Shown here in pieces: positions 26,008-45,877 of a DNA stretch of 64,000 nt. Under the pieces are notes generated by a model. It made no database searches, was not told where the DNA came from, and saw nothing but the letters and a program-made list of their open reading frames with translations. How positions within the stretch are numbered: position 1 is the stretch's first letter; the number at the start of each line of letters is the position of its first letter. Both the position numbers and the translations under genes were made by a program. This DNA comes from Mobula hypostoma (lineage: Eukaryota): the NCBI RefSeq assembly GCF_963921235.1, contig NC_086097.1, forward strand, positions 46,936,001 to 47,000,000. The letters run 5' to 3'.

Positions 26008-29000
26008 TACTGAGGGATAGTGCAGAGCACATCACAATGCCAGAATGCAGTATACTCACTGAACCTTATTGATGATTCTGCTTGTATAGTATGTGAACTC
26101 CTCCCATGTGGGAATGGCTAACTGAGTGGCAAAGGAATAACACTATTTACTACTACATCTCCCCTTCTTGAAAACAAGAGAAAAACTAGATATGTACATC
26201 TTGTCTATAGAACTATATTGAAATTATGGTCACTGAAGTTGAGCGAACCAGTTTACTTTAACCATGGCACGTTATGTGTGCTCCTTCAAGCCAAGTTTAT
26301 TGTCATTTAACTATATACATTTATACTGTCAAATGAAACACTGTTTCTCCAGACCAGGGTGTAAAGCACAGTAGTATGCATAACACACATGTAACAAATG
26401 TATAAAAGAATTACCAACATTATAACTGTCTTTCTCCTTGTTTTCCCCCTTTTTTCACCAATACTTTTTTTTAAAAGAATGGTCTTATTTGAGCAATGTT
26501 TTCAACATGATAACTCTTTTGGAAAGTGCATAGTTCTGCACTTTGGCAGAAGAAATAAATGGGCAGACTATTACTTAAATGGGGAGAGAATTCAAAGTTC
26601 TGAGATGCAACGGGACTTGGGAGTTCTCGTGCAGGATACCCTTAAGGTTAACCTCCAGGTTGAGTCGGTGGTGAAGAAGGCGAATGCAATGTTGGCATTC
26701 ATTTCTAGAGGAATAGAGTATAGAAGCAGGGATGTGATGTTGAGGCTCTATAAGGCGCTGGTAAGACCTCACTTGGAGTACTGTGGGCAGTTTTGGTCTC
26801 CTTATTTAAGAAAGGATATGCTGACGTTGGAGAGGGTACGGAGAAGATTCACTAGAATGATTCCGGGAATGAGAGGAGTAACATAAATGAGGGACACCTC
26901 ATAGAAACATTTCAAATGTTGAAAGGCATAGACAGAGTGGATGTGGCAAAGTTATTTCCCATGATGGGGGAGTCTAGTACGAGAGGGCATGACTTAAAGA
27001 TTGAAGGGCATCCATTCAGAGCAGAGATGTGAAGAAATTTTTTTAGCCAGAGGGTGGTGAATCTATGGAATTTGTTGCCACGGGTGGTAGTGGAGGCCAA
27101 GTCATTAGTTGTATTTAAGGCAGAGATTGATAGGTATCTGAGTAGCCAGGGCATCAAAGGTTATGGTGAGAAGGCAGTGGAGTGGGACTAAATGGGAGAA
27201 TGGATCAACTCATGATAAAATGGTGGAGCAGACTCAATGGGCCGAATGGCCGACTTCTGCTCCTTTGTCTTATGGTCTCATGGTCTTATGGTCTTTTTGA
27301 AAACCACTAAATCCTAATGGAGGTCAGGATAGACTACCTGAACACTCTGGCAAAGTGAGAGGATTATTCTGCCTCTTCAGTCACTTGCCCTAAGCTATTA
27401 AACTGTGGAATCTCTGTGGTGGGACAAATAAATGACCCGATCTGGTGTAGGTTTCTGAAAGTGTTGGAGCAGATGAAGATTCTTGCACATGTGCAGTCAT
27501 TTCAATAGGTGATCATGAGGATCAAGCCACTCGTTTTTTCTCGACATTTCGTGGACTTTGAAGGCACACAAGCACATGTTTGTTATGCCTGATTTCCCCT
27601 TACGGTGTTCTGATCACAAAGGATCATGGTGCCAGTCTATTGTTCCTTTGGTGAATTGGTCTGAAACACAAACAGCTTTGCTGCTCCTGAGCGGTGACAA
27701 AGATTTTGTTCTGTATCTGAGATCAAGCATGTTCATTTTCTCACGCGTTGGCGTCTCAAAATTTCTCTCTTTGTCCAATAAGTGAGGTTGGAGAAGGAAC
27801 GGAAGAACAGGAAGGCTTGTTCTCTGTCTCTGGCCCATTGACAGCTCTGATGGACTGTAGCCATTTGCAAGAGGTGTGGGGTGTTAAGCTAGCAGTACTT
27901 TGTAGGGGACTTTTGCCTTCCATAGGAATCTCTTAACAATTTACACTGCTCTTTCTGCTTCTCAATCTGCTTGGGGATTCTTTGGATTGCTTGTCTGGTG
28001 TTTGAACTCATAGTCAGCAGCAAAGGCTTTGAATTCTGAGCAGCTGAATCAGGGACAGTTGTCTGACACAAGCGCCCCTGATATTCTCTGATGAATGAAT
28101 ACAGCTTTCGGACGCTGTATAACTGCTGCTGAGGAAGTAGAAGACACCTTGGCACTTCAATATTCGATGGGTAGTAATCCACAGTGGGAAGATGTTTGTC
28201 TCTTTTCAGAAAATGTCTGTGCCTACACTTTGACATGGAAAGTCTGGGAATTCTGTGGGGCAGAGAGGTTCAGCATGATTTTTGTGCAGTTTTCTGAATG
28301 CTTCACATTGCTTTTCATAATCTCCCAGCTGTGTGCTCAGACCAGGCCAGAACATAGATAGCCTTGCTCTTAGGCAACATTTTTCAATGCTTTGATGTCC
28401 TTGGTGGATTTGACGGATAATTTTGGCATGCTTGGAAGCAGGAACGATGAGTCTGGAGACCTTTAGCAGCAAACCATCAAGAATGGTGAATGTGTCTGTT
28501 TTGTTCGGATCAAAGAACATCAATATTGGCAGAGAGATAAGCTCTGCTTTAAATGATGAGAATGACTTCTCCTATGGTGCGCCCCAGGTCCAAATTTTTC
28601 TCTGAGAGAGGAGGTCGTGTAGTGGTTTTGTTCTCTCTCCAAATCAAGAATGAACTTCACCACAGGTTTACCACACCAAGGACTGCAGATACATTCGTAG
28701 GTTGTTCCATGTTCCCAATTCCTACCAGTTTGTCTGAATCTGGTTGCACTCCCCCTTAGGACACTTGATGGCTTAAGGACTTCACCTCATACTTTTCAAA
28801 TTTGCATTTCTTTTTGTTCAGGGTAATTCCAGCCCGTTCCAGTTTCTCCAAGGCAACTTCCACTCTTGTCATTTTCCTCACTTGAGCCTCCAAAGATGAG
28901 TATATCGTCCATTGGCAGACTACTCCTTTCAATCCCTCCAAAATTTGGTTCATCCTCATCTGAAAGAGTGCAGGGGCTGATGAGATGTCAAAAGGGAGTC

Positions 29001-29620
29001 TCCTGAAGGCATAACATCCGTATAGTGTGATAAGGGTTGTGAGCTTCTGTGACTCAGGAGCTAAATGGATCTGCCAGAACCCTGAGTTTGCATCTAGTTT
29101 GGTGAAGAACTTTGCTCTACCAGCATACTATAAACAATGTGTGCTCAACAGAGGGCAGAATAAACTTCTCCTGTCTCACTGCATTATTCAATTTTGTTAG
29201 ATCAACACAGATCCTCACTATGCCATCTAGGTTGGGAACAGTAACAATGTCCACACACCGATCAGTAGGTCCTTTCATTTTAGTTATGATGTCAAGCCCC
29301 TCCATCCTCTCAAGTTCAGCTTGACTTTGCTCATCAAGGGGACTGGTATACTCCTCACTGTGGTCAGAGAGTAGGGTGTCAGTCCTAGCCTCAGTCTGTG
29401 GTACTCTGCTTTTAGTACAGCCAGGATGGTTGTGAAGAAAAAGCATTTCAGGATTGTTATTGTATACATTTCTCTGACATCAAATGTACCTTTTAAACCT
29501 TGGCCAGATACTTCTCCTGTCACTGAACATTATTTAGCAAATCCAACCTTGCAATGAGGTTCAGCTTCTGTATGGCATGTCATCCCAGTAGTGGTGAAAA
29601 GAGATTCTGAACAACATAAA
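26008..29620 (-). mobile_element. Gypsy LTR retrotransposon remnant (RT, integrase, PPT, partial 3' LTR)
   Basis: RICVDLTKLN, KLDANSGFWQI, RLPFDISSAP, IHQGHQSIEKC...ARLSMFWPGL and PCQSVGTDIF. PPT AAGAAGGGGAGA (26158-26169) abuts the LTR start TGTA at 26157. Confidence 0.88.
26522..27295 (+). mobile_element. CR1 LINE 3' fragment inside the Gypsy element
   Basis: RDLGVLVQDTLKV...LYKALVRPHLEYC; tail (TATGGTCT)n. Confidence 0.93.
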
Positions 29621-29867
29621 CTAACAAAGAAATTTGTGTGTAAGGCTGTTGGACACCTGAGGTTACCCTTGGCATTAATTGCTTCATTTTTAAGTATTAT
29701 TTTACTTCCTTCTATATTTTGTTAAGAATTATTTGTTTCCTTCTGTATTTTATTATTGATATAACTGATAAAGTGGTCCCTGTAACCTTTAACCCATGTG
29801 CAGTACTTCTTAGTTTGCAGATACATATTGCTGCTGAATCAAGAAAGAACAAGGTATGAACTTTAAA

Positions 29868-29995
29868 AGCAACACACAAAAAATGAACAAACTGTTGATA
29901 TTTTGGGACAAGACCCTTCATCAGGACTGGAAAGGCAGGGGGAAGATGTCAGAATAAAAAAAAGAAGCAGGGGAAGGAGGACTAGCTAGAAGCTG
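29868..29995 (-). mobile_element. Penelope-like fragment with decayed hammerhead motif
   Basis: Minus strand reads CAGTC-CTGATGA-A-GGGTCTTGTCCC-AAAA-TATC-AACAG (29892-29929). Confidence 0.7.
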
Positions 29996-30020
29996 AATTT
30001 AAATTTATTTGTTACCAAAT

Positions 30021-30040
30021 TGGTATAGCTGGCAGGATTC
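30021..30040 (+). promoter_or_regulatory. Retroviral primer-binding site, tRNA-Ser-like
   Basis: TACCA-AAT-TGGTATAGCTGGCAGGATTC. Matches TGGCGTAGTCGGCAGGATTC (complement of the tRNA-Ser 3' end, from memory) at 16/20, with mismatches at or next to CpGs. Confidence 0.7.
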
Positions 30041-30644
30041 TGCAGAGTGTTCTGCAAACAACAGGACAGAGGAGACTCCCTGGAGGGACAGAGTTTTGGG
30101 TACTGGGGTGTATGGACAACACCTATTGTTTTGGAGAACTGACCATCATATTGTCCGTGTGTTGCCCTCTCATGCATTGGAGTAGTGAGATGGAAAGTAG
30201 TAGCGGTGACATCCTGGTATGGATGTGTGAAATGAGATAGGGTTTCCAATTTAGGAGGAGAGTAAGCTTGCAATGGAAAATGACATATGGCGTGTATCAG
30301 GCAGCAGGGCAATGAGTGGCCACCCTCACTGAGAAATTGGTTACCCTTGAAGGCAGAATGTCACCTTAACTGAATTGGCTAAGTCAGTCCCCGAACCAGC
30401 CAACAAAGCCAAAACTCAGCAAATCACAGTCCTATTGGTTTAAGAAATGTAATAGAACACTACATAGCATGAATGTAAGAATGAAAGGTGTTGCATGGTT
30501 TATTCTTGTAAATAGCTTTTATTATGAATAATGTTTATATGAATTATATGAATTTTATTATGAATAATGTCTGTTCACCTACACCGGTATTATAAGGTTT
30601 ATATGAATTATATGAATTTTATTATGAATAATGTTTGTTCACCC

Positions 30645-31841
30645 ACACCGGACTCCCTACAATTCACCTACCAACACCGATCAACAGCTCTTCACACTGT
30701 CCTTACACACCCGGAGAAGAGGAATGTTTATGTGACAACGCTGTTCTTGGACTACAGTTCAGTATTCAACACCATAATGCCCTCCAGGCTTGACAGGAAG
30801 CTCAGAGACATCAGCCTTCACCCTGCCTTGTGTAGCTGGATCCTGGCCTTTCTGTCAGATCACAGGCAGTTGGTAAGAGTGGGCTCCCTCACCTCTGCCC
30901 CTCTGGCCCTCAACACAGTGCCCCTCAGTGTTGTGTCCTAAGCCCCCTCCTTTACTCTCTGTATACCCATGACTCCGTCACCACTCACAGCTCCAATCTG
31001 CTAATTAAAGTTGCTGACAACGCTACACTGATTGGCCTAATCTCAAATAATAAGGCAGCCCACAGAGCAGAAGTCATCACTCTGACACAGTGAATTCAAG
31101 AAAACAACTTCTCCCTCAATGTCACAAAAATGAAGGAGCTGGTTGTGGACTACAGGAGGAATGGAGACAGGCTATTGACGTCAATAGATCTGGGGTTGAG
31201 AGGGTGAACAGCTTTAAGTTCCTCAGCATACACATCACAGAGGATCTCACGAAGTCTGTACATACCGGCTGTATGGTGAAAAAAGGTATGACAGCGCCTC
31301 TTTCACTTCGGACGGTTGAAGAAGTTTGGGATGGGCCCCCAAATCCTAAGAACTTCCTACAGGGGCACAACTGAGAGCATCCTGACTGGCTGCATCACTT
31401 CCTAGTATGGGAACTGTACTTCCCTCAATCGCAGGACTCTGCAGAGAGTGGTGCGGACAGCCCAGCGCATCCATAGATGTGAACTTCCCACTATTCAGGA
31501 CATTTACAAAGACAGGTGTGTAAAAAGGGCCTGTAGGATCATTAGGGACCTGAGTCATCCCAACCACAAACTGTTCCAGCTGCTACCATCTGGGAAATGG
31601 TACCACAGCATAGAAGCCAGGACCAACAGGCTCCAGGATAGCTTCTTCCACCAGGCCATCAGACTGATTAATTCATGCTGATACAATTGTATTTCTATGT
31701 TATATTGTCTTTCCTGTTGCACATACTAGTTATTATAAATTACTATAAATTGCACATTGAACATTTAGACAGAGACGTAACGTAAAGACTTTTACTCCTC
31801 ATGTAAATGAAGGATGTAAGAAATAAAGTCAATTCAATTCA
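30645..31841 (+). mobile_element. Rex1/Babar-type LINE, 5'-truncated
   Basis: LFLDYSSVFNTI, LCSWILAFLSDHRQLVRVG, KVADN and NSFKFLSIHITEDL; tail AATAAAGT(CAATT)n. Confidence 0.9.
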
Positions 31842-33335
31842 AAAACGCAACCTAGCATGCAAACTGTTTAAAGCACGCCAGGAAGATTGGGCAAAGCCAA
31901 AGGATCTGGATCCTGATCCCATCAGAATAAGGACATTAATGGACAAGGGTTGGGACCCCAACAGCTGGAATGCCAGTATATATGACTCCAACACTCGACA
32001 TGGTGACTGTCCTGAGGCTCTCTCACCGAGGTGTGAGTGGGTTTTACATATGAGAACCTGATAGTACAGTGCCGTCCGGTTATTGTCCATAGCCCTAAGA
32101 CTACCACAGCCCCAGGAGGCGAGCATAGGACAGAAGAGGAAGGTGTGACAAGGGTGTTGAAGACTACAGAAAAGAGGGGCATGCGGGATAAATATGCGCA
32201 AGACTGGCGATTATCTTGCCTTATGGTTAATTTGATTGTGGGATATGGTGCCTCACGAGACCAATGACTTGCTCCTTCCGTCTCCACAAAGTGATAATAT
32301 TAACCAGAGTTGACACAAGAACCAAGAACCTTCGGACTTGTTAGCGCAAGTCCAATGCGAGATATTTAAGGTTTATCGCTGCGGGTGATAGAACGGCGGG
32401 CACCTTTGCACACCATAGACCAGGGAATTATTACGCTTTGATCTGTAGTTTCGCACAGAAACATAGAAAAACCTATAGCATAATACAGGCCCTTTGGCCC
32501 ACAAAGTTGTGCCGAACATGTCCCTACGTTAGAAATTACTAGACTTCCCCATAGCCCTTTATTTTTCTAAGCTCTATGTACCTATCCAAAAGTCTCTTAA
32601 AAGACCCTATCATATCCGCCTCTACCACCATCGCCGGCAGCCCATTCCACACACTCACCACTCTCTGCATAAAAAACTTACCCCTGACATCTCCTCTGTA
32701 CCTACTCCCTAGCACCTTAAACCTGTGCCCTCTTGTGCTAGCCATTTCAGCCCTGGGAAAAAGCCTCTGACTATCCACACAATCAATGCCTCTCATTATC
32801 TTGTACACCTCTATCAGGTCACCTCTCATCCTCCATCACTCCAAGGAGAAAAGGCCGAGTTCACTCAACCTGTTCTCATAAGGCATGCTGCCCAATCCAG
32901 GCAACGTCCTTGTAAATCTCCTCTGCACCCTTTCTCTGGTTTCCGCATCCAGGGATTTAATCCAGTTTGGGGTGGAACGTTCCAGGTGATGAGATATTGA
33001 ATCAGGGACACGTAAGCAGCTTAGTTCAACACAACTAAAGGGAGTCCTGTTGGCTCTCTTGGCATCGCAAGTGGAGCAACCCTTAAAGGCGGTACTTGGA
33101 GGAAAATCAGAGGAACTGAGGGAAAGCAAAAGTTAGGGCTTTGAGGTCAAAGGGAGTAAAAATAATTCACAGAGAAATGTTTCTGGCTGCAATGACGGCA
33201 GGAGTGGAAAGTTAAGGACCTTATTTTCACGAGAACGACGTATGCCTTATTCAAACATTGTTGTGATAAGAATAAAGTGTGATAATAAGAATGTTGAGCC
33301 TCGGACCCCTCCCATCACCCAGGCTGAAGTTCACA
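31842..33335 (+). pseudogene. ERV-L-like gag remnants (interrupted by CR1 at 32457-32935)
   Basis: IRIRTLMDKGWDPNSWNASIYD and TEEEGVTRVLKTTEKRGMRDKYAQ / TGDYLALWLI*LWDM resemble ERV-L/Fv1 Gag motifs recalled as VKVRALIGKEWDP.TWNGDVWED and PGE...W.LR.WDNG. Confidence 0.7.
32457..32935 (-). mobile_element. CR1 LINE 3' fragment
   Basis: MRGDLIEVYKIMRGID...FFMQRVVSVWNGLP; same subfamily as the copies at 20012 and 45051. Confidence 0.93.
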
Positions 33336-33397
33336 GCAGCTTCGTGGTTAACATGAGACTATTATAGCTCGGCGGTGGGAATTCAATTCCGATGTCA

Positions 33398-36300
33398 TAG
33401 AGCCATAATAAAGTATAGCATAGAGGCCCTTCGTCCCACCTAGTCTGTGCTGAACCATTTCAACTGCCTATTCCCAACGACCTGCACCACGACTATAGCC
33501 CTCCATACCCCTACTAACCATGTACCTACTCACACTTCTCTTAAACGTTGAAATTGAGTTTGCCCCTACACCTGTGCTGGCAGCTCGTTCCACACTCTCA
33601 CGATCATCTGAGGGAAGAAGTTTCCCTCTCTTTTCTCCTTTCACACTTAACACATCATCTCTAGATGTAGTCCCACCCAACCTCAGTGGAAAAAAAGGCT
33701 GCTTGTATTTACCCTATGTATACCCCTCATAATTTTGTATACCTCCATCAAATCTCCTCCCAATCTTCTACATTCCAAGGAATAAAGTCCTAACCTATTC
33801 AACCTTTCCTTAAACCTCAGGTCCTCCAGTCCTAGCAACATCTTTGTAAAGTTTCTCTGTACTCTATTAAACTGAATTACATCTTTCCTGTAGGTAGGTG
33901 ACCAATACTGCACACAACACTCCAAATTAGGCCTCACCAATGTCTTATACAACTTCAACATAACATCCCATCTCCTGTTCTCAGTACATTGATTTATGAA
34001 GGCCAAAAGCTTTATCCTGTGATGCCACTTCCAATGAATTATGGAACTGTATTCGCAGAACCTTTTTTTCTTCCACACTCCTCAGTAGCCTAGAGTTTAC
34101 TGAGTAAGATCTATCTCGGTTGATCCTATCCAAGTGCAAAACCTCACACTTGTCTGCATTAAGTTTCATCTGCCATTTTTTCCAGCTGGTCCAGTCTGCA
34201 AGCCATGATAGTCTTCCCTGCTGTCCACTACACCCCCAAACTTAGTGTCATCTGCAAATTTTCTGATCCAGTTAACCACATTATCATCCAGATTGTTGAT
34301 ATAGATGACATACAACAATGGACGTAGCATCAATCCCTGTGGCACTCCGTGAGTCACAGGCCTCCAGTCAGAGAGGCAACCATTTACCACCAGTCTCTGG
34401 CTTCTTTCATGGTCCGGTCCGTGAACTCCATATTCCGGTTCACAGCCCAGTCCATAGTTCCTTATCCAGGGTTTCTGGTTTTCCCCAGTTTCTGTTGTAG
34501 GCACGATTCTCGTTTTGGGGCTGAGACATAAATACCGCTGCAAACCAGGGATTCCCTACTGGTTGGTTCTTTTCCCCTCCTTGTCTTTCCCCCCTCGCCT
34601 GACGCTCTGCCTGGATACCTCACCTGACTCTCTGCCTGCTCACCTAGCCTGGATACCCTGCCTGTAATGCTGAAGTTTTACTGCTGGAACAAGACCGGAG
34701 CCTTGTTAGGTCAAGATAAGGAACTGTCTTTCATTGTGTGGAATTGTCTCTCTGTGTCCATGCCTTCGCTAGGTAGGTCTGGCCATTTGCCGCTTCCTAG
34801 TGTTGGGAACTGTCTCTGTGTCCTCGCCTTTGCTAGGTGGGTCTGGCTGTTTGCCGCCACCTAGTGTTGGGATCTGTCTCTTCATGTTCAGTGTTCTGTG
34901 TATGAGTCCCAGCCCTACGTCCTGTTCCCAAGGAGGGGACCCGGCTCTGTGTTATGTGTATGAGTCCCGTCCCTACGTCCTGTTCCCAAGGAGCGGTCCT
35001 GGCTCTGTGTTCCACGCTCCCGTCTCTTCTAGTCCAAGGCTCCATGCTCCCATCTCTTCTAGTCCAAGGCTCCATGCTCCTGAAGGCCCTTGTCCAGTCC
35101 GTGCCTAGTCCAGTCCTATCCGAGTCCTGTCCATGTGTCTTTACCTGTCCTTGTGTCTCGCCTTACCCAGGAGTTCCTCACCCAAGCCATGTCCAGTCCT
35201 GTAGCCTCGTCTTGTCCTCGCCTAGTTCTGGAGTCTGAGCCCGAGTCAAGTCCCAGGTTCTGGGTCCTTGCCCAGTCTCTGGCTAGGAATCCATACCCAA
35301 GCCTCGAAGTACCCTAGACCCAAGACCCAAGACCCCAGACCCCCAGCCCGTCTCCAAGCTCTAGCCTCAGGACCCCCAGCCAGTCTCCAAGCTCTAGCCT
35401 CAAGACCCCAGCCTCCAGTCCTGCAGTCATGTTATGTCTTTGCCTTGTTCTGGGGCCCGAGCCCAAGGCAAGACCCAGGTTCTGGGTCCTTGTCCAGACT
35501 CTGGCTTGGGGTCCAAGCCCAGGTTCCTAGTTCATAGTTCCTTGTCCGGTTTCCCTGTTTCTTGTCCAAGTCCTAACCCAGGTCCTGCATCCTTGTCCTG
35601 TTCCTAGTACTTCAGTGCCTGTGTCTTGCATTTGGGTCCGTTCCCAGCACCACAGTGTGACAGCTTCTCTCTCAAAGCCAATGTCTACTCCAATTTACTA
35701 CTTCATCCTGAACGCTGAGTGACTGAACCTTCTTGATCAGCCTCCCATGCGGGACCTTGTCAAATGCCTTGCTAAAGTCCATGTAAACAACATCCACTGC
35801 CCTGCCTTCATCCATTTTCCTGGTAACTTCCTTGAAAAACTCTAGAAGATTGGAAAGACATGAAGCCATGCTGACTATCCTTAATCAGTCCATGTCTATC
35901 CAAATACTCATATATATGGCCACTTTGAATACCTTCCAGCAACTTTCCCACTACTGATGTCAGGTTCACTGGCCTGTATTTTCCCTGTTTATATTTCGAG
36001 CCTTTATTAAGCAGCAGAACAACATTGCTAAGGATTATTTAAATATCTCTGCTAGGACTCTGGCAATTGTTGCACTTGTCTCCCAAATGGTGTGAAGGAA
36101 TGCCTTGTTAGGCTCTGGGGATTTAACCACCCTAATTTGCCTCAGGACAGCAAACACCTCCTCCTTTGTGATCTGTATAGGGTCCATGAAAATTATGCTG
36201 CTTTGCCTCATTTCTATAGACTTTGTGTCTATCTCCTGAGTAAATACAGATGCAAAAAAAAAATCATTTAAGATCTCCCCATCTCTTTTGGATCCACACA

Positions 36301-37456
36301 TGGGTTACTATTCTGACCTTCCAGAGGATTAGTTTTGTCCCTTACAATCCTTTTGCTCTTAACAATTCTGTAGAATCCCCTAGGATTCTCCTTTCACCTT
36401 GTCTGCTAAGGCAACCTCATGCCTTCTTTTAGCCCTCCTGATTTCTTTCTTCAGTGTTATCTTGTATTTTTTATACCCCATAAGCACCTCATTTGTTCCC
36501 ACCTGCCTATGCCTGCTCTGCACCTCCTTTTTTCACTTAACCAGGGCCTCGATAGGTCTTCAAAATCAAGGTTCCCCGCATTGATTATCTTTACTTTCTA
36601 ATCTGACAAGCTTATACAAGCTTTATACTCTCAAAATTTCACTTTTGACAGCCTGTGTACCTTTACACCCTTGTCAGAAAACAGTCTGTCCTAATCCACA
36701 CTTACCAGGTCCTTTCTGACACCATCAACATTGGCCTTTCTCAATTTAGAATCTCAACCTATGGAGCAGATCTATCTTTTTGCATATTTGCTTTGAAACT
36801 AATGGCATTGTAATCACTAGGTGCAAAGTGTTCCCCTACACAAACTTCTGTAACCTGCACTGTCCCATTCCCTAATAGCAGTTCAAGTATCTCTCATTGG
36901 GACTTCTACATACCGATTAAGTAAACTTTCTTGCAACAGTCTGTGATCTCTCTACCAATTTGTTCCTCTAAATCCCTCAGTGTTGGTTGGTCTGTAATAT
37001 ATCTCCATTAACATGGCCATACCTTCCTTTTTACTCAGTTTCACCCATAAAGCCTCAATTGATGAGTTCTCCAGTCTGTTCTGACTGAGCACTGCCATGA
37101 CATTTTCCCTGACTAGTAATGCCACCTGTCCTCCTTTAGTCCATCCTGCTCTCTCATCTAAAACAACGGAACCCAGAATATTGAGCTGTCAGCCCTGTCC
37201 CTCCTGCAACCAAGTCTCACTAATGGCTACAATATCATTATTCCAGGTGTCGATCCATGCCCTGAGCTCATCGGCCTTTCCTACGATACTTCTTGCATTG
37301 AAATCAATGCAGCTCAGGACATTAGTTGCACCATCCTCAACATTTTGATTCCTGACTTTGTCTGAGGTCTTGACCATACCTTTCTCCACAATATCTTCAC
37401 TATCTGACCTGGTACTCGGGTTCCCATTCTCCTGTAACTATAGTTTAACCCCCCCC

Positions 37457-37489
<33 letters not shown>

Positions 37490-37604
37490 GTGCGGGACAC
37501 ATAAACCTTCCCACTAGGATATTAGTCCCCTTCCAGTTCAGATGTAAACCATCTCTTTTGTACATTTCCCACCTTCCCTGGAAGAGAGGCCAATGATCCA
37601 AAAG
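33398..37604 (-). mobile_element. Long CR1 LINE (end of ORF1 esterase, endonuclease, RT)
   Basis: RDGLHLNWKG; FNARSIVGKADEL...VAISETWL; VDVVYMDFSKAFDKVPH; GVPQG; KFADDTK. Confidence 0.93.
34405..35662 (+). mobile_element. Solo LTR-like element, copy 2
   Basis: TTTCATGG (variant of TGTCATGG)...TGACA with 5-bp TSD GCTTC (34400-34404 and 35663-35667). The CR1 sequence rejoins across it. Confidence 0.88.
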
Positions 37605-37704
37605 TCTGTAAGGAGTATGTACGTCCTCCCCGCGGAATCTAAGGGTTTTCTGCGGGTGCTCCATTTACTTCCAACAGGCCAAAGGCATACCGGTTCCTAG
37701 GTGA

Positions 37705-38362
37705 TGAAGAAGAAGAAGAATATCTTTATTGTCATTGTTGTGAAGTAATGAAACACAGTTTAGCAGCTCAACGTTTTGCAGCACGACAAGAATATATACA
37801 TAAAATAAACTCTAAAACCTCAGGAGTGCAGTCCAAAATTAATAACATATGGATGGGGAGTGGGGTAGGACTATTGCACACCTGCCATTCCTGGAAGTGT
37901 GATGCATTTAGCTGCCGCCGTCTTAGGAGTGGGGCAGGAGAAGGGAAGGGGGTGTTATACATTTCACTGCTTGTGGGTAGAAGCTGTTAAGGAGTCTCTT
38001 TGTTTTCGTCCTTAATGCTCTGTATCTCTTCCCAGAAGGTAGAGGGGAAAACAGGTGATGTCCAGGATGAGTGGGATCCTTTGAAATACAAGTAGCCTTC
38101 TTTTGAAGTCTGCCAGTATAAATGTCTCTGAGGGAGGGTTATGTTGTGCCAATAACCTGCTCTGCTACCCTCACCACGTGCTGCAAGTCCTTCCTGTTCT
38201 GTTCTGTGCAGCTGGCAAACCACACTGCACAGCAATACGTCAGGAGGCTCTCTATAGTTGTCCGATAGAAGTCGATCAGCAGATGATGAGGGAGGAGAGC
38301 GTTCCTTAGGAAGCAGAGCCTGTGTTGGGCCTTCCCCACCTGATAAGAGATATGGGCAGTCC
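37705..38362 (-). mobile_element. Rex1/Babar-type LINE fragment
   Basis: KAQHRLCFLR...FYRTTIESLLTYCCAVWF; (TTC)n tail; AGGTGA duplicated on both flanks. Confidence 0.85.
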
Positions 38363-39390
38363 AGGTGAATTGGTCATTGTAAATTGTCTCATGATTAGGC
38401 TACGGTTAAATCGGCGTTGCTTGGCGCGAAGGGCCTATTCCGCGCTATATTTCAATAAATAATAAATAAGTAAATGCGAAAAGAATAGTCGACATCAGGA
38501 GCATGGGGATCGATCGAGAGTGGTGCAGTGCTTCCCAGCCTGTCTCCTGAGGATAGGGTCAGGGGCAGTTAGACTGATTAAGGTTTTCCACCGGGGGTCT
38601 GAAATCATGTGTAGTTATACCTTGCAGTGGAAGGATAGGAACAAGTGAAATATTAATGCACTGTTAGGTCGATTGCCTATTGAGAGGGGACGCCGATGAA
38701 AGATCTAATACTGATATCTGCGTTACCTAAATATATAATTGGAATAAATGTACTGCAGGGACAGACAGTACAGAACAAATCGGAAAAATTCTTGTTTGTC
38801 ATCTTTAACGTGACCGTTTTAGTGAAGTTAGCGAAGTCGGAGTCCCGTCAGACACAGCCATCCAGCGCCGTGGTCTGCCTGACGCAGTATCGGATACTGG
38901 GAGGCTTGATAAGACATTCAACCACAAAGTATAACGGTCCTGTTGGCCAGCTAATCAAGCGGCAGCTGGAGAATAAGATTTGATTATCGCCAGCAAAATA
39001 AACACACCCCTGCGTTAGCTGCAGTCGTCCAGAACATACTGACTTCAGTGGAGCCAAGAAATATCACAGAGGGAAGCGAGACCCGACCCGACCTCTCCAT
39101 CATGACATGGTTGCTCTCGGAGTACTCCGCTAACAAGTTGGGGAGAACACAGAAAGTGTCTATTGTAAAGTGCAGAACGAGCAAGCCCGGCCCCGGGAAG
39201 GAGTCGGCAAGTTGCACGAACGTGTAGTCAACACGCCCGTGGATAGGATAGGTATCTATCAAACCTCCCATCCATAATGTCCCCTCCCCTCCTGTTACAG
39301 GGGAAGTGCCTTGTGAACGGCTGCCTGAAGCAAGCACTTGATTTATGCACGGTCCCAGTCACCAGAAAGCTGACATACACGGGTGGAAAG

Positions 39391-39542
39391 TAAACAACAG
39401 GAATTCTGCAGATGCTGGAAATTCAAGCAACACAACTCAAAGTTGCTGGTGAACGCAGCAGGCCAGGCCGCATCTCTAGGAAGAGGTACAGTCGACGTAC
39501 CTCTTCCTAGAGATGCTGTACCAGCAACTTTGAGTTGTGTTG
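39391..39542 (-). mobile_element. Fold-back Penelope-like mini-insertion
   Basis: 13-bp TSD CACGGGTGGAAAG (39378-39390 and 39543-39555). Hairpin GCATCTCTAGGAAGAGGTAC-AGTCGAC-GTACCTCTTCCTAGAGATGC plus a 23-bp outer inverted repeat. Confidence 0.9.
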
Positions 39543-39730
39543 CACGGGTGGAAAGCTGCTGCATTTAACTCAGCCACAGGAATAACAGCAGCCCGGAGAA
39601 ACCAGCTGCCCATATTAGATAGAGGACTGGCCCAGCCCAGATACGGCAGACGTATTATACTGAACCTCTGTCACAGCAGCAACGATTTAAATGCACGCTC
39701 AACAAGCACAGACTGTTGAAAGATATGCTG

Positions 39731-39862
39731 GAAGGGCCTCGGCCCGAAACGTCGATTGTTTATTCCCTTCCATAAATGCTACTCGACCCGCGGAGTTCCT
39801 CCTGTATTTGTATGTGTGTGCTGTTAAAGATATCCGACATCTGCCGAATCTCTTGCGCTTAT
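39731..39862 (+). mobile_element. Penelope-like fragment with 3' half of hammerhead motif
   Basis: GAA-GGGC-CTCG-GCCC-GAAA-CGTC-GATTG followed by the family tail. Confidence 0.7.
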
Positions 39863-40066
39863 TAAGTACAGGATTTCCTCACTATGGTTTACACGTATTC
39901 AGGTCTTTTGACGGTAATTCCTTGTATCTAGGCGAATCTTAAGGCATACTCTTAAGGGATTGCAGGAGTTCATGTGTTGTAAAGGGCCCCGCAAAAAAAA
40001 ACGATACTGTAATGGGTCCCATTTTTCAAGAGAAGCTGAAATGTATCATATACCCTATTATCCCCC

Positions 40067-40380
40067 TGCGTTGGCACGTGGCCAAGTGGTTAATGTGTTC
40101 GTCTAGTGATTTGAAGGTCGCTAGTTCGAGCCTTGGCTGAGGCGGTGTGTGTGTGTCCTTGAGCAAGGCACTTAACCACACATTGCTCTGCGATGACACC
40201 GGTGCCAAGCTGTATGGGTCCTAATGCCCCTCCCTTGGACAACATCGGTGGCGTGGAGATGGGAGACTTGCAGCATGGGCAACTGCTGGTCTTCCATACA
40301 ACCTTGCCCAGGCCTTCGCCATGGAAACTTTCCAAGGCGCAAAACCATGGTCTCATGAGACTAATGAATGCCTATATATA
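40067..40380 (+). mobile_element. tRNA-derived SINE with CORE-like central domain
   Basis: A box TGGCCAAGTGG (40079-40089), B box GTTCGAGCC (40124-40132), GTGTCCTTGAGCAAGGCACTTAACC, and a 10-bp TSD ATTATCCCCC. Confidence 0.88.
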
Positions 40381-40414
40381 ATTATCCCCCAGCACTAAGG
40401 CCAATTATAAGGAT

Positions 40415-42160
40415 GAACATAGAGCACTACAGCACAGTACAGTCCCTTCAGCCCATGACATTATGACATTAGCCTATTCTAAGATCAACTTAACACTTCC
40501 CTCCTACATAGCCCTCCATTTGTCTGTCATTGGCAGTACTTGTAAGCCAATTCTAAATCCACACATCCCTGTTTCCCTCCATCCCATCCTGTTCTGACTT
40601 TCTTAATGAGCCTTCCATGGGGAACCTTATCAAATGTCTTACTAAAATCCATATGCACCACATCCACTGCAATAATTTCATCAAAAACACAGAGATTCTG
40701 CAGATGCTGGAAATCAAGAACTCTACACACAGAATACTGGAGGAACTCAGCAGGTCATGCAGTATCATTGGAAATGAATAAACAGTCGGCCTTTCAGGCC
40801 AAAAGTGGTGCTTTGTCACATCATTAAATAATTCAATCAAGGTCGTGAGGCATGACCTGACCTTCATAAAGCCAAGCCTAATCAGACCATGTTACTCCGA
40901 ATGCTTGTAAATCTTGTCCCTAAGAATCTTCTCCAATAATTTTGTCATGGTCTGGTCCATGAAGTCGGCATTCCGGTTCACGGTCCGGTCCATCGACCCT
41001 TGCTCCAGGTTTCCCTGTCTACCTTGTTTCTGTTCCTGTTGAGCACTAATTGAGGCAGCTGATTCTCATTGGGGCTGGCTGCATAAATACCTCCAGAGAC
41101 CAGGGTGTGGCTGCTGGATTGTTCTTGTCCTTACTCCTTGTATCCCTTCCCCTGCCTTCTGTTTCCTCGCCTGAAGCCATGCCTTGCCTTGCCTTGCCTT
41201 GCCTTGCCTTGTCTTGCTGGTAACTCTCACCTCGTCTCACCTGAAGTCTTGTCTTGGAGCCACCCTGTACCTAGCTCCCTTCCTGTCCCTTGCCTCCACC
41301 GGGTAAGTCAGGTCATCTTGCCGTTACCCTGCGGTTGGTTCTGTCCCTTCCTGTCCCTTGCTTCCGTCGGGTGGAGCACCGCACCCTGCCCAGGAGGAGC
41401 TTCAAGACCCTAAGCCTCGAGCCTCGAGCCTCGCCCCAAGCCAAGCTTCAAGACCCCAAGTCTTGAGCCGCGCCCCAAGCCAAGCTTCAAAACCCAAGCC
41501 TCAAGTCCCAAGTCTCTGATCTCCAGCCTTGCCTCAAGTCTCTGGTCTCCAGCCTCGTCCTGCCTGCCAGCCAAGTCACGTCCTTGCCTAGCTCTGGGGT
41601 CTGAGCCAGAGGCAAGACCCAGGTTCTGGGTCCTTGTCCAGTCTCTGGCTCAGAGTCCAAGCCCGGGCTCCTAGCTCTCTTGTCCAGTCCTGTTCCGGGT
41701 TCCCGGTTTTTGTGTCCATGTCCTTGCCCTTACCTGCCAAGGCTTTCTCATACCTTCTTCTAGCTCTTCCAAGTCCATTCTTCATCTCTTTCCTGGCTAC
41801 CATGTAATTCTCTGCAGCTGTGTCTGATCCTTGCTTTGTAAACTTTAAGTAAGCTTTTTATTCCTCTCTTGACTAGATGCTCCATATCGCTTGTTAACCA
41901 TGGTTCCTTCATCCTACCATAGTTTCCCTGCCTCAAAGGGACAAAGCTATCAAGAACCCCATGCAAGTTATCCCCAAACAATCTCCACATTCCTGTTGTG
42001 CATTTCCCTGAGTACATCTGTTCCCAATTTTTGCTCCTAAGTTCCTGTCAAATAGCATCATAATCCCTCTTCCTCCAAATAGATGTTTTCCCATACCACC
42101 TGCTATTATCCCTCTCCAAGGCTAGGGAGAGTGGGCACTGTCTCCCAAATGCTCATCCAA
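40415..42160 (-). mobile_element. CR1 LINE fragments with Penelope scrap (about 40683-40803) and LTR insertion
   Basis: VDVVHMDFSKTFDKVPHGRL and RSCLTTLIELF; CR1 tail at 40415. Confidence 0.85.
40943..41730 (+). mobile_element. Solo LTR-like element, copy 3 (divergent subfamily, 3'-truncated)
   Basis: Starts TGTCATGGTCTGGTCC. Shares GCAAGACCCAGGTTCTGGGTCCTTGTCCAG with the other copies. No TGACA end or right TSD. Confidence 0.75.
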
Positions 42161-43819
42161 TGAATGAATCTTGAAGCAACATATTCTCTATTAAACCAAC
42201 CCACACCTTACAAGGGTGACTGGCTGTACTACCCCAAGCCTTGTACAACCTTGGACAATGGACTCCTACCCCAAAGGTTGTCGATGACCAGATGATCAAA
42301 TGTACTTTGGAACCTGAGTTGGAAATGGGCACTGTGGAAGGGAAAGTATGGGTGTACATTCCAAACTTTCCAGCTTGCAAGAACGAGAATGTGACAAGTG
42401 GAGGTAATAACACATATTGGGTGTTAGTACAAGAGGAAGGCCATCTGGTGTATTTAAACAGGGAGAAATTAACAAAATAAGAATGGTTTTTAAAACTTTG
42501 GAAAACTGATAACAAATGCTCTGCTCTGTTTCAGGTGGAACAAGAGTGCTTCTGGAGCTATTCTAATCAGTGACATAGGTTTTCCTATGGGCAGAGAGTG
42601 TCATCTGGATGTGCAGGAAGGACTCACAAAGATCTACAATGGATGAAGGAGACATTTTTTGATTAACCCCCCTCCCCCCCCAACAGGTTCACGGAATCAG
42701 ACTGAATAACTGCAAATGGGATTGCATTACTCAAAATAAAGCATGAGATTGGGGAACAAACATTAAGAGATGGAAATGTACTGGTATAAGTGTTATGTTA
42801 GGTTAATAAAGGATGTAAAAAGGGGAAATCTCTTTGTGCAAATGGGAATCATCCCTTTGACTGGGTCACAACCAGTGCTAAGAGACAGAGGCTGCATGAA
42901 AGGCTGTTGGGACCCTGAGGTTCCCTCCAGTATTATATAGATGAGTTAATTCAGAGGGACAGCAACTGATGTATTTTTAGTAAAATGATCCAACATATAG
43001 TTACCAGGCTGTTCAGGTCCCGTTTTCCAATTTAAACAATAAATTTCAACCTATCAACTAGGTGTAAATGGAACTCCAGTACTTTCAATAATTAATCTGT
43101 CCATCCTAAGTGCCTGCTTTGTCAATGCATTGCAGAAACCTATGCTGCAGATCTCGCATATCATCGCACTCAGAAAGTTCTGAACTATTTGGCTGCACCA
43201 CCAGATGGAGCATTTCATAGTTTTTCAACGTTCCATATGACGATAGTAAAAAGATCACAGCTTTATTATGAAGTAATGACTAGGATCTGTAAGTGCTTAC
43301 AGGTTACATACAAGAAAGCCATTTTATTTATTTTGTTCTGATGAAGGAGGTTCCCTTATAAATTTGCTAAATTACCTCTTCTGTTATTTTTGTTCCACCT
43401 CAAACCCAGAGAAGTATCCCAAAAGGCATTTTTAACCCTACATATTTTCTGTAAACTTAGATAGGCAGTCAGTTAAAACTGATTCATAAATATATTAAAA
43501 AGAAGCAGACAGTTCAGCCATCTCTGTCTGCTTAATGAGATCTTTTATTGCTACAAACATCACTTTCTAGCACTAACTTCATAACCCATGATTCTCTAAT
43601 ATTGAAAAATTCTCGCAATCCTTGTCTCCAGTATTCTCAACAACTGAGTTGCATTGTCCTTTTGGTCAAGAATTTCAAAGATTTCGTCCTCCTAAATGAA
43701 GAAATTCCTATTCACCAGGGGCAAATTGTAATGAGGATATTGTAACACTGCCATAGGATTTAGACAGATTGACGAGTGGATGAAAACTGTTTACAGTAAT
43801 AATAAATGTTTAATTTGGG

Positions 43820-44535: not shown

Positions 44536-45877
44536 AGTGTCTCTTGTGTCTCCTAGTATGAGGTAAATAAGAGGAATAAAATGCAAAGAGACCGCAAATG
44601 CATGTCACACGAAGTCAACAAGCAAATGCAACATGTAGCTTAGAGGGCAAATGGTATGCTGGCCTTTATTGCAGATGGTTGGAATTTAGAAAGAGGGATG
44701 AGACTATCCCTTAAGTACCACTTATGGTTTTGGTCCCTTTACCCGAAGGTGTTTATTGTACACTGGAATTGCAGGGGGATGGGAACCAGAGTGCCAGGGC
44801 AGCTGGGGAATTGGATGTGTGGTAAGTATGTGTTAAGCCTACTTACAGTATAAAGACAGGAACCAGAAGAAGTGGGACTAATTTTCTGGCTTGCAGCTAT
44901 TTCAATGCAAGTATTGTAAGTAAGGCAGATGAGCTCAGAACATGGATCAGCACATGGAATTATGATATTGTAGCCATTATAGAGACTTGGTTGCAGGAGA
45001 GGCAAGACTGACATTTTATTGTTCTGGAATTCTGTTGTTTTAGATATAATATAGAAACATAGAAGACCTACAGCACGATACAGGCCCTTCGGCCCACAAT
45101 GCTGTGCCAAACATGTACATACTTTAGAAATTACCTAGGGTTACCCACAGTCCTCTACTTTTCTAAGCTCCATGTACCTATCTAAGAGTCTCTTAAAAGA
45201 CCCGATTGTTTTCACCTCCACCACCGTTGCTGGCAGCTCATTCCGCACACTCATCACTCTCTGCGTAAAAAACTTACTCTGACATCTCCTCTGTACCTAC
45301 TTCCAAGCACCTTAAAATTGTGCCCTCTCATGTTAGCCATTTCAGCCCTGGGAAAAAGCCTCTGACTATCCACACAATCAATGCCTCTCATCATCTTATA
45401 CACCACTATCAGGTCACCTCTCATCCTCCGCCATTTCAAGGAGAAAAGGCCGAGTTCACTCAACCTATTCTCATAAGGCATGCTAACCAATCCAGGCAAC
45501 ATCCTTGTAAATCTCATCTGCACCCTTTCTATAGTTTCCACATCCTTCCTGTAGTGGGGTGACCAGAACTGAGCACAATACTCCAGGTAGGGTCTGACCA
45601 GGGTCCTATACAGCTGGAACACTACTTCTCGGCTCTTAAACTCAATCCAACTGTTGATGAAGGCCAGTGCACCATTGCCTTCTTAAACACAGAGTCAATC
45701 TGCACAGCAGCTTTGAGTGTCCTATGGACTTGGACCCCAAGATCCCTCTGATCCTCCACACTGTCAAGAATCTTACCATTAATACTCTATTCTGTCTTCA
45801 TATTTGACCTACCAAAATGAACCACCTCACACTTATCTGGGTTGAACTCCATCTGCCACTTCTCAGCCCAGTTTTGC

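Follow-up and report, generated by a model that had tools for sequence, protein, structure and literature searches.

Can a stretch of DNA crowded with younger mobile elements hide the remains of a single ancient retrovirus, and if so, of what kind? The question is raised by a 64-kb window of contig NC_086097.1 (the window being the whole stretch analysed, which is repeat-rich and eukaryotic, and was searched against its own 3.48-Gb assembly). A first-pass annotation made from the letters alone had read the gaps between transposable elements at 30021-43300 as pieces of a class III, ERV-L/ERV-S-like endogenous retrovirus (ERV) in a probable cartilaginous fish. Our analysis favors this reading in its main lines, with a probability of about 0.88: positions 29639-43307 are most probably one dead provirus from an old, low-copy, ERV-L/ERV-S-related class III family, and from a subfamily of it that lacks the core of the reverse transcriptase (RT). 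The provirus measures about 13.7 kb, about 3.8 kb of which is retroviral.

All of the peptides quoted in the first-pass annotation are present on the plus strand, at or near the places given for them, in the list of open reading frames (ORFs) or in read-through frames; these include the tether peptide EGVGKLHERV and the integrase (IN) peptide TMVYTYSG, and the others are listed in Table 1. When 25 annotated ERV proteins, retrieved by means of a fuller family copy, were searched against the window with tblastn, a check that the annotation had itself proposed, collinear plus-strand matches were obtained in Gag-Pro-Pol order with E values down to 6e-14. The end of the protease (PR) and the start of the RT at 38672-39053 matched 20+ ERV Pol proteins (E 1e-9 to 6e-14). 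Gag at 31693-32244 matched residues 78-292 of P0001, with sub-matches to residues 124-292 and 137-191 (E 9e-5 to 4e-3); P0001 is a Gag-Pro-Pol protein of 1,520 residues from the ray Hemitrygon akajei, and is the nearest protein to the fuller copy (49% identity, E 9.5e-74). The tether at 39084-39244 matched P0001 residues 1010-1067 (E 6e-4 for a two-piece match with P0001), the IN core at 39878-40070 matched P0001 residues 1341-1415 and other proteins (E 0.002-0.05), and the IN C-terminal domain at 42271-42483 matched P0017 and P0013 (E 0.002-0.003). Profile models built from relatives and run against 2,537 six-frame pieces of the whole window recovered PR/RT (E 1.2e-8 and 7.1e-10) and, at about 0.01-0.02, Gag, the IN core and the IN C-terminus (the Gag match lying at 31840-32004, E 0.0099), with no comparable match elsewhere on the plus strand. 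On these sequence comparisons, in which the matches go beyond chance, the retroviral fossil can be taken as confirmed. Its parts follow the retroviral order on one strand: the primer-binding site (PBS), at 30021, is followed by gag (31879-32443), PR/RT (38672-39053) and IN (39873-40070 and 42159-42480), all between weak long terminal repeats (LTRs).

The annotation had also proposed that younger transposable elements split the provirus, and the gaps indeed consist of long interspersed element (LINE) material and two small repeats, with flanks that abut in other copies. These gaps can be read as insertions because the same pieces are adjacent elsewhere: window segments 30113-30423 and 31879-32443 follow one another in locus L016 on contig C81 (384 to 400), and segments 39592-39692 and 39873-40036 do so in locus L044 (1136 to 1137), which closes the gaps at 30423/31879 and 39701/39873. 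Likeness to the family also ends at 32443 and restarts at 38478, and ends near 40070 and restarts at 42159 (17-20 loci). Tandem repeats at 34749-35011 lie inside the LINE insertion at 32444-38477. The repeat at 39381-39518, which resembles a miniature inverted-repeat transposable element (MITE), gave 6,056 first-look candidates in the genome, with 84-99% identity among the 40 scored; its contig depth is very high, and it is very abundant in contigs of two further organisms, B and C.

Smaller remnants were compared with shuffled sequences. The likely Gag N-terminus at 30088-30215 scored 39 and 50 when compared with the N-terminal ends of Gag in P0001 and P0033, values that exceed the 95th percentile of 500 shuffles but do not exceed their maximum. 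Segment 39519-39701 holds two remnants but lacks the IN zinc finger and most of RNase H from between them, and is contiguous as a whole in the deleted copies L012/L040, L013/L041 and L017. Against P0001 residues 1116-1126 and 1309-1333 it gave local scores of 36 and 38, again above the 95th percentile of shuffles and not above the maximum. The peptide GWKAAAF, which had been assigned to RNase H, keeps this assignment with weak support: its local score of 36 exceeds the 95th percentile of 200 shuffles (31) and falls below their maximum (46).

Position 30021, given as the start of the element in the first-pass annotation, proved to be the first base of the PBS. Four loci of the family carry TGG[C/T][G/A]TAG[T/C][C/T]GGCAGGATTC, 2-4 bases after ..TTACA or ..ATACA (..TTACC in the window). 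A 20-nt pattern of this site occurs at nine places in the genome, and all six of the loci that were fetched hold a tRNA-Ser(AGA) gene with a complementary 3' end; the complement of the host tRNA-Ser(AGA) 3' end was read in L045. Compared with tRNA-Ser(AGA) plus CCA, the PBS agrees at 17 of 18 positions in L038, at 16 of 18 in L035 and L037, and at 14 of 18 in the window. The mismatches are mostly CpG-type transitions, including three of the four in the window. Class III LTRs have the termini TGT...ACA (PMC8278194); upstream of the PBS, three other loci show ACA, and the window shows ACC.

Self-BLAST of the window gave no LTR pair at E 1e-3. The region 29688-29868 is 63-65% alike to sequence that follows the IN C-terminus or precedes the PBS in L027, L028, L038, L037 and L039. 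A putative 5' LTR start, the TGT at 29639, and its 3' counterpart, the TGA at 42897, were both set by a 29-nt match alone (29639-29667 with 42897-42925; 24 of 29 identical, local score 19, where the best of 200 shuffles reached 18), and we place the 5' LTR start at 29639 tentatively. Aligned globally, the two putative LTRs score 31.5, compared with 11.6 +/- 3.9 (maximum 27.5) in 300 shuffles and with 31 other segments of the window, none of which exceeds 26.5. The provirus would extend from about 29639 to about 43307, with weak support for both outer edges, and the end proposed at first, 43300, falls about 7 bases short of the weakly supported end of the 3' LTR relic at 43307. An inverted 59% match (26524-27136 with 45175-45834), together with hits at 45000-45900, was considered as a pair of LTRs and rejected, the sequence being a common LINE. 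In the family copy on contig C50 (L037 at about 5100-5600, L038 at 6551; G000:C50, about 55.9 Mb) the LTR pair is 70-84% identical. A Gypsy element (L038 717-3866) and a LINE have broken up this copy. A second PBS directly follows its 3' LTR, which suggests a tandem LTR-internal-LTR-internal arrangement.

The class of the virus was approached through phylogeny, motifs and counts of identical residues. After P0001, which matches the window's own genome at an identity of at most 67%, the nearest proteins to the fuller copy come from a caecilian, a frog, an owl, a killifish and a lungfish. A protein search restricted to similar lengths yielded six matches, none with an informative name. An RT tree (56 rows and 431 columns under LG+G4, with support values in the form bootstrap/Shimodaira-Hasegawa-like approximate likelihood ratio test) left out eight fragmentary rows (the window, L021, L041, L040, L017, L076, P0029 and P0031). 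In this tree the window family (L035, L038, L074, L075) was supported at 100/98 and fell within a 12-row clade of ERVs from the window's own genome and the H. akajei element (96/96), here called the ray clade. The ray clade lies inside a 35-row group that holds all dUTPase-bearing ERVs sampled, among lineages of amphibians, ray-finned fishes, lungfish and birds, and the order among it and two dUTPase-bearing groups is moderately supported (76/90). A split at 100/99 separates the 35-row group from two Gypsy-like proteins (P0024 and P0025), which form an outgroup pair of their own (100/100), and from 16 exogenous viral contigs. Pfam labelling of the 16 viral contigs was partial, with five unscanned: six of the eight scanned for gag and env carry Gag_p30, Gag_MA and TLV_coat, the other two (12.7 kb and 10.7 kb) are without gamma gag or env families, and three further contigs (L052, L057, L066) have only the integrase C-terminal domain of the murine leukaemia virus (MLV) type. 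The phylogenetic check suggested in the first-pass annotation thus goes part of the way, setting the family apart from Gypsy and from gamma- and epsilon-like viruses in a tree that holds no labelled ERV-L, ERV-S, foamy or snakehead-retrovirus references.

Domain order and motifs extend this comparison (statements cited by PMC number hold for the available parts of those papers). In seven of the 13 relatives scanned (P0005, P0009, P0011, P0013, P0014, P0015, P0017) the order is RT-RNase H-IN-dUTPase, and in two more the dUTPase follows RNase H with no IN detected. A dUTPase C-terminal of IN is the MuERV-L type of acquisition (PMC1224870) and is found also in XtERV-S (PMC8278194). P0001 has a Gag major homology region (MHR), DYRRLN and YIDD motifs 103 residues apart, HX4HX28CX2C, no Cys-His box and no myristylation signal; HX4HX28CX2C recurs in P0005, P0009, P0013, P0014 and P0017, and that part is missing from the window. 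The RT motifs are decayed in the family, reading DYCQLS and YINDIML in L035 and DYRQQN in the window, where the YIDD part is deleted. In Table 2 of PMC8278194, the motifs of P0001 agree with the ERV-L and XtERV-S columns and not with the foamy column (no MHR, YVDD, HX3HX29CX2C) or the MLV column (DLREVN, YVDD).

Identical residues were counted by hand, not computed, against the labelled RT alignment in Additional file 1 of PMC8278194. The 31 residues GSWRIRFDYRQQNKHTPALAAVVQNILTSVE of the window share 17 with XtERV-S, 12 with MuERV-L, 11 with bovine foamy virus and 7 with AKV MLV, and 58 residues of L035 share 40, 31 and 21 with the first three (AKV was not counted), so that XtERV-S has the highest identity of the labelled references in both. 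Tree, motifs, serine PBS and hand counts together support the original assignment to a class III, ERV-L/ERV-S-like element with a deleted RT core. By these features the family is ERV-L-like in having no env, ERV-S/XtERV-S-like in its serine primer, and ERV-S-like in having no dUTPase.

Other assignments have to be weighed against this one. The element could be a foamy-like ERV (FLERV), the Spumaretrovirinae-related kind of class III element that is known from elephant shark and catshark (PMC5512871, PMC10699275), but we consider this improbable. The integrase of P0001 does find its best match among solved structures in prototype foamy virus (5.9e-23), a match that is not discriminating because no full-length gammaretroviral integrase was among the structure matches listed. 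Foamy Gag clusters also top the Atlas feature search for P0001 Gag, at 0.85, a level often reached by shuffled proteins. On the other side, P0001 has an MHR, YIDD and HX4HX28CX2C, unlike the foamy column of PMC8278194, its nearest relatives are dUTPase-bearing ERVs, and in the hand counts XtERV-S (40/58) and MuERV-L (31/58) both exceed bovine foamy virus (21/58).

A class I ERV of epsilon- or gamma-like type is less probable still. Epsilon-like ERVs are known from sharks (PMC4977317), and the RT of P0001 is marginally best matched by the RT of MLV and xenotropic MLV-related virus among solved structures; taken together, the structure scores agree with the class I/III side of the family but not with class II. 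However, the 16 viral contigs and the Gag_p30- and TLV_coat-bearing ERVs lie across the 100/99 branch of the RT tree, these contigs being mostly gammaretroviruses by Pfam, plus the 12.7-kb and 10.7-kb viruses that lack gamma families. The motifs also depart from the MLV column of PMC8278194, with DYRxLN rather than DLREVN, YIDD rather than YVDD, and no Cys-His box, and the window shares only 7 of 31 RT residues with AKV. A Ty3/Gypsy LTR retrotransposon or a set of chance peptide matches, as the short, Pfam-negative window pieces and the commonness of Gypsy in this genome (one copy lies inside the C50 copy) might suggest, was tested and is scarcely credible, given collinear pieces on one strand with E down to 6e-14, family copies that hold better preserved retroviral PR, RT, RNase H and IN, Gypsy-like proteins that form a 100/100 outgroup, and the presence of a PBS and LTR layout.

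Gag bears on the ERV-L/ERV-S-like assignment as well. By tblastn, ..DPDPIRIRTLMDKGWDPNSWNASIY.. of the window aligns with ..SPDPARVRAMLVKGDDIDTWDGDIW.. of P0001, and ..ALWLIxLW.. aligns with the P0001 MHR (QKTSEPLAAWLLR), which lies at residue 277 of a protein that starts MNLF and has no CCHC; the window retains none of the nucleocapsid part. In P0001 a GQR motif stands just before the MHR, and Table 2 of PMC8278194 places GQR after it. A search with the P0001 Gag part among shorter proteins gave three matches and no Fv1; two of them are from rays (H. akajei and the electric ray Narcine bancroftii) and one is from a spadefoot toad. A profile built from these relatives matched 316 proteins at E <= 1e-3; the ten sampled for names comprised seven bird clusters, one with a Klebsiella label and two nameless ones, none of them named Fv1. 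The matches in birds tie this Gag to bird ERVs, and bird class III ERVs are classed as ERV-L-related (PMC12287698). Some public gene models that contain this Gag (P0033, P0177 and P0180 being the proteins concerned) carry misleading names, such as 'sperm acrosome-associated protein 9 isoform X1' for one from N. bancroftii and 'sushi domain-containing protein 1-like' for one from a snowfinch, and the Klebsiella pneumoniae label on one Gag cluster probably reflects animal DNA in bacterial assemblies.

The 3' part of the element suggests how its architecture differs from that of the dUTPase-bearing relatives. Only about 30 codons separate ALYNL from KVWV in the window, where relatives carry a dUTPase, and in P0017 and P0013 the residues that match window positions 42271-42483 lie at or after the end of the dUTPase domain. 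Because of this spacing and position, the dUTPase is absent by architecture rather than by later deletion. A six-frame Pfam scan of the genome gave no dUTPase either (0 matches, six candidates scored), which is a weak negative, as the split gene of the host was missed too. The stretch homologous to KVWV..NTYWV follows the dUTPase in P0013 and P0017, and the dUTPase would therefore have been inserted within the IN C-terminal region of such elements, not appended to it. An env gene is lacking as well, since only about 260-400 bp separate the end of IN from the LTR in four copies (L037, L027, L028 and L039); the window has about 400 bp from where its IN frame stops to where the LTR putatively begins.

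The RT core is missing from the window, as had been claimed: about 255 residues, or about 800 nt, are absent between 39053 and 39084. The family to which this copy belongs is visible at 22 other genome places through the PR-RT piece (67-82% identity) and at 38 through the IN C-terminal piece (65-81%). Fuller copies, whose recovery the annotation had recommended, were found in L035 (C58) and L038 (C50), both with an RT that holds decayed DYRxLN and YIDD motifs; family copies keep retroviral PR, RT, RNase H (PF00075-type in relatives) and IN far better than the window does. In the alignment, gap blocks of 798 and 30 columns are common, column for column, to the window, L040 (C5:180.21 Mb), L041 (C9:203.87 Mb), L017 (C5:180.52 Mb) and L021 (C66), and the RT core is present at this site in L035 and L038. 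The join between the RNase H remnant and the IN core is common to three of the four deleted loci (L040, L041, L017). The deletion is thus not private to the window but present in at least four other loci, and indicates a non-autonomous, RT-deleted subfamily. The usual explanation for the spread of a defective element is that it uses the enzymes of intact relatives.

Two further observations concern the family and its clade in this genome. Loci L043 (4378-4953) and L044 (1156-1731) are tandem members about 6.8 kb apart (G000:C1, about 124.57 Mb), each with an open integrase frame of 192 codons and a weak rve match (E 0.006-0.009). Their frames differ at 14 of 576 nt, with proportions of nonsynonymous and synonymous differences (pN and pS) of 0.025 and 0.023; this points to a recent local duplication, and domestication was rejected, as a pN/pS of about 1 gives no sign of selection. 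The same genome also holds related but separate ERV lineages of the ray clade in a much better state, some with open frames of more than 1,500 codons and several on small unplaced contigs, and the clade may have been active far more recently than the window family.

How old is the insertion, and in what host did it arise? From organism B, a 974-nt contig covers 38446-39413, and with it both the deletion junction and one edge of the MITE-like repeat, at 29 substitutions and 6 gaps (about 3%), and a 205-nt contig from organism C shows 6 differences from the window. Paralogous copies of the family differ by 18-35%, and for this reason the two contigs can be read as orthologues, which places the insertion before the splits of the source organism from B and C. 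With rates for fishes of 1-2.5e-9 per site per year (PMC10699275), the LTR divergence of the C50 copy, not of the window copy, suggests a rough age on the order of 10^8 years. The cartilaginous-fish host proposed by the first-pass annotation, probably a ray, fits the data, if indirectly, the nearest named relatives being H. akajei and N. bancroftii. H. akajei itself can be rejected as the source, given the identity of at most 67% that its protein reaches in this genome.

Taken together, these findings allow a probable history to be outlined. The parent virus would have primed reverse transcription with tRNA-Ser and encoded a Gag with an MHR and no zinc knuckles, a protease, an RT, an RNase H and an integrase, with neither dUTPase nor env. 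Before its spread, the subfamily would already have been without the RT core and probably without the IN zinc finger and most of RNase H, and the window copy was presumably copied with enzymes from intact relatives. After integration, which would predate the split of the source organism from organisms B and C, at least five later insertions (LINEs and the two small repeats) and decay by point mutation appear to have left a locus without coding capacity or evident function.

Several observations weigh against this account. Two hallmarks of ERV-L are lacking: no dUTPase match was found in the window or in 10 + 3 related loci, and the PBS matches tRNA-Ser(AGA) instead of tRNA-Leu. The assignment to class III and to the relatives of ERV-L draws on motifs, on architecture, on hand counts and on setting gamma, epsilon and Gypsy elements aside, rather than on a position among labelled references in the tree, and the RT of P0001 matches the solved structures of MLV (1.4e-43) and foamy virus (4e-42) about equally well. 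In the window by itself, the E values for gag, the IN core and the IN C-terminus are modest (0.002-0.05), and none of nine read-through frames contained any Pfam family, a blank that can be attributed to the shortness and decay of the pieces, which put them beyond family models. Support is weak for the 3' LTR and for the outer edge of the 5' LTR, and no target-site duplication is recognisable. Finally, the C5 loci L012/L040 and L017 look like an inverted duplicate of one insertion, which would leave about four putatively independent places of RT-deleted copies.

Table 1. Parts of the provirus, later insertions and quoted peptides, in window coordinates
Feature	Position	Strand	Evidence or remarks
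Probable 5' LTR, about 378 bp	29639..30016	+	Ends GTTACC, 4 nt before PBS
PBS for tRNA-Ser(AGA), decayed, 14/18	30021..30038	+	Complement of host tRNA 3' end
Leader and likely Gag N-terminus (about 30088-30215)	30039..30423	+	30113-30423 adjoins gag piece in L016
Later LINE fragment, RT C-terminal part	30424..31878	+	Weak RVT_1, E 6.5e-4; LINE pieces of other loci match
IRIRTLMDKGWDPNSWN	ORF 31807-32061	+	gag
Gag N-terminal half up to MHR remnant	31879..32443	+	tblastn, profile, DNA likeness to L016, L026, L043
WLIxLWDM	about 32206-32244 (..ALWLIxLWDM)	+	Gag MHR remnant
Later nested LINE copies with repeat-rich 5' parts	32444..38477	-	RVT_1, Exo_endo_phos, ALKBH8_N
Protease C-terminal part, RT N-terminus, deletion junction, tether/connection	38478..39380	+	tblastn, profile; protease about 38672-38830, RT N-terminus 38858-39053, junction 39053/39084, tether 39084-39244
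ISALPKYIIGINVL and QYRILGG	ORF 38684-38983	+	Protease end, RT start
GSWRIRFDYR and SIMTWLLSE..KLGRTQ	ORF 38955-39227	+	RT start, tether
Later small palindromic MITE-like repeat	39381..39518	.	Dispersed genome-wide, both strands
RNase H N-terminal remnant (about 39546-39578, weak) joined to IN core start (about 39600-39675)	39519..39701	+	
GWKAAAF	ORF 39534-39719	+	RNase H assignment weak
Second small dispersed repeat, later insertion	39702..39872	.	Many loci, both orientations; high contig depth
Integrase catalytic core (TMVYTYSG, NGSHF, HIPYYP)	39873..40070	+	tblastn; DNA likeness to 13-22 loci
NGSHF/YHIPYYP	ORF 39918-40106	+	Integrase core
Later LINE fragments with repeat-rich part	40071..42158	-	LINE protein matches 40575-40960, 41854-42131
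IN C-terminal part (TLQGxLAVLPQALYNL, KVWV..NTYWV, to about 42480) and 3' untranslated tail	42159..42896	+	DNA likeness 62-70% to 20 loci, reaching about 42800
LAVLPQALYNL..KVWV..NTYWV	ORF 42220-42480	+	Integrase C-terminal part
Probable 3' LTR relic, weak	42897..43307	+	Ends GGTTACA

Two neighbouring features of the window lie outside the provirus. Just upstream, an unrelated RT relic at 28500-29118 on the minus strand finds its best matches in the Gypsy-like or Gag_p30-bearing proteins P0024, P0025 and P0021 (E about 1e-5). Downstream, a 5.3-kb minisatellite at 46354-51731 has periods of 21 and 39, the 39-nt unit being repeated about 127 times with 91% matches, a G+C content of 0.62 and a strong purine skew on the plus strand.

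Among described elements, the closest parallel to the window family is XtERV-S, together with the African bullfrog ERV, both class III and ERV-L-related (PMC8278194). These share the tRNA-Ser(AGA/TGA) PBS, a putative LTR end in ACA (read in three loci of the family other than the window), a Gag with an MHR and no zinc knuckle, DYRxLN and YIDD, and HX4HX28CX2C. XtERV-S differs in having its own dUTPase in pol, a class I-like env, intact copies and frog hosts; in the ray family both dUTPase and env are missing, and the copy in the window is a ruin. MuERV-L and HERV-L resemble the ray family in having no env, in a Gag MHR at 281 in ERV-L versus 277 in P0001, in the lack of a Cys-His box and in RT and IN motifs (PMC8278194), and the ray family belongs to a clade with ERVs whose dUTPase is placed as in MuERV-L (PMC1224870). 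ERV-L differs in its leucine PBS and its dUTPase, both lacking in the ray family, and in an RT identity (31/58) below that of XtERV-S.

ERV-S is named after its serine PBS. Its members, HERV-S and a chimpanzee ERV-S, are class III elements with no identifiable dUTPase, as in the ray family, but are said to have associated env sequences, of which the ray family shows none (PMC8278194).

Beyond amniotes, ERV-L-related ERVs have been described from frogs (PMC8278194), clade III accounts for the majority of ERV RT loci in six Chondrichthyes genomes (2,843 loci; Table 2 of PMC11089739), and clade 'Huo', which contains class III, is reported from all major vertebrate lineages (PMC6001957). The clade III and 'Huo' ERVs of cartilaginous fishes share host class and broad clade with the window family. 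The importance for host range that the first-pass annotation had attached to a chondrichthyan member is therefore largely pre-empted by these surveys. They list RT loci, and in their available parts describe no PBS, Gag, lack of dUTPase or RT-deleted subfamily. In the literature covered, which does not extend to the survey supplements, we found no ray ERV-L/ERV-S-like family with a serine PBS and an RT-deleted subfamily.

The gain is a descriptive one, consisting of the PBS type, the Gag features, the absence of dUTPase and the deleted subfamily, and it leaves the known host range unchanged. The ERV-L/ERV-S-like group is the source of the mouse restriction gene Fv1 and of the MERVL elements of early embryos. 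We would put forward only as a tentative and somewhat doubtful proposal that rays carry an old ERV-L/ERV-S-like clade of their own, with an MHR-bearing Gag of the type that was the source of Fv1, no zinc knuckle, a serine primer, and neither env nor dUTPase; that cartilaginous fishes harboured this clade on the order of 10^8 years ago and were the hosts in which its dUTPase was lost; and that it includes a helper-spread subfamily without the RT core and probably without most of RNase H. The locus itself is junk DNA, and its worth is that of a dated fossil, which documents serine-primed, env-less relatives of ERV-L and ERV-S in rays through an insertion common to at least two further organisms. 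The common deletion of the RT core would make the family a clean example of a defective retroviral subfamily, apparently spread with borrowed enzymes.

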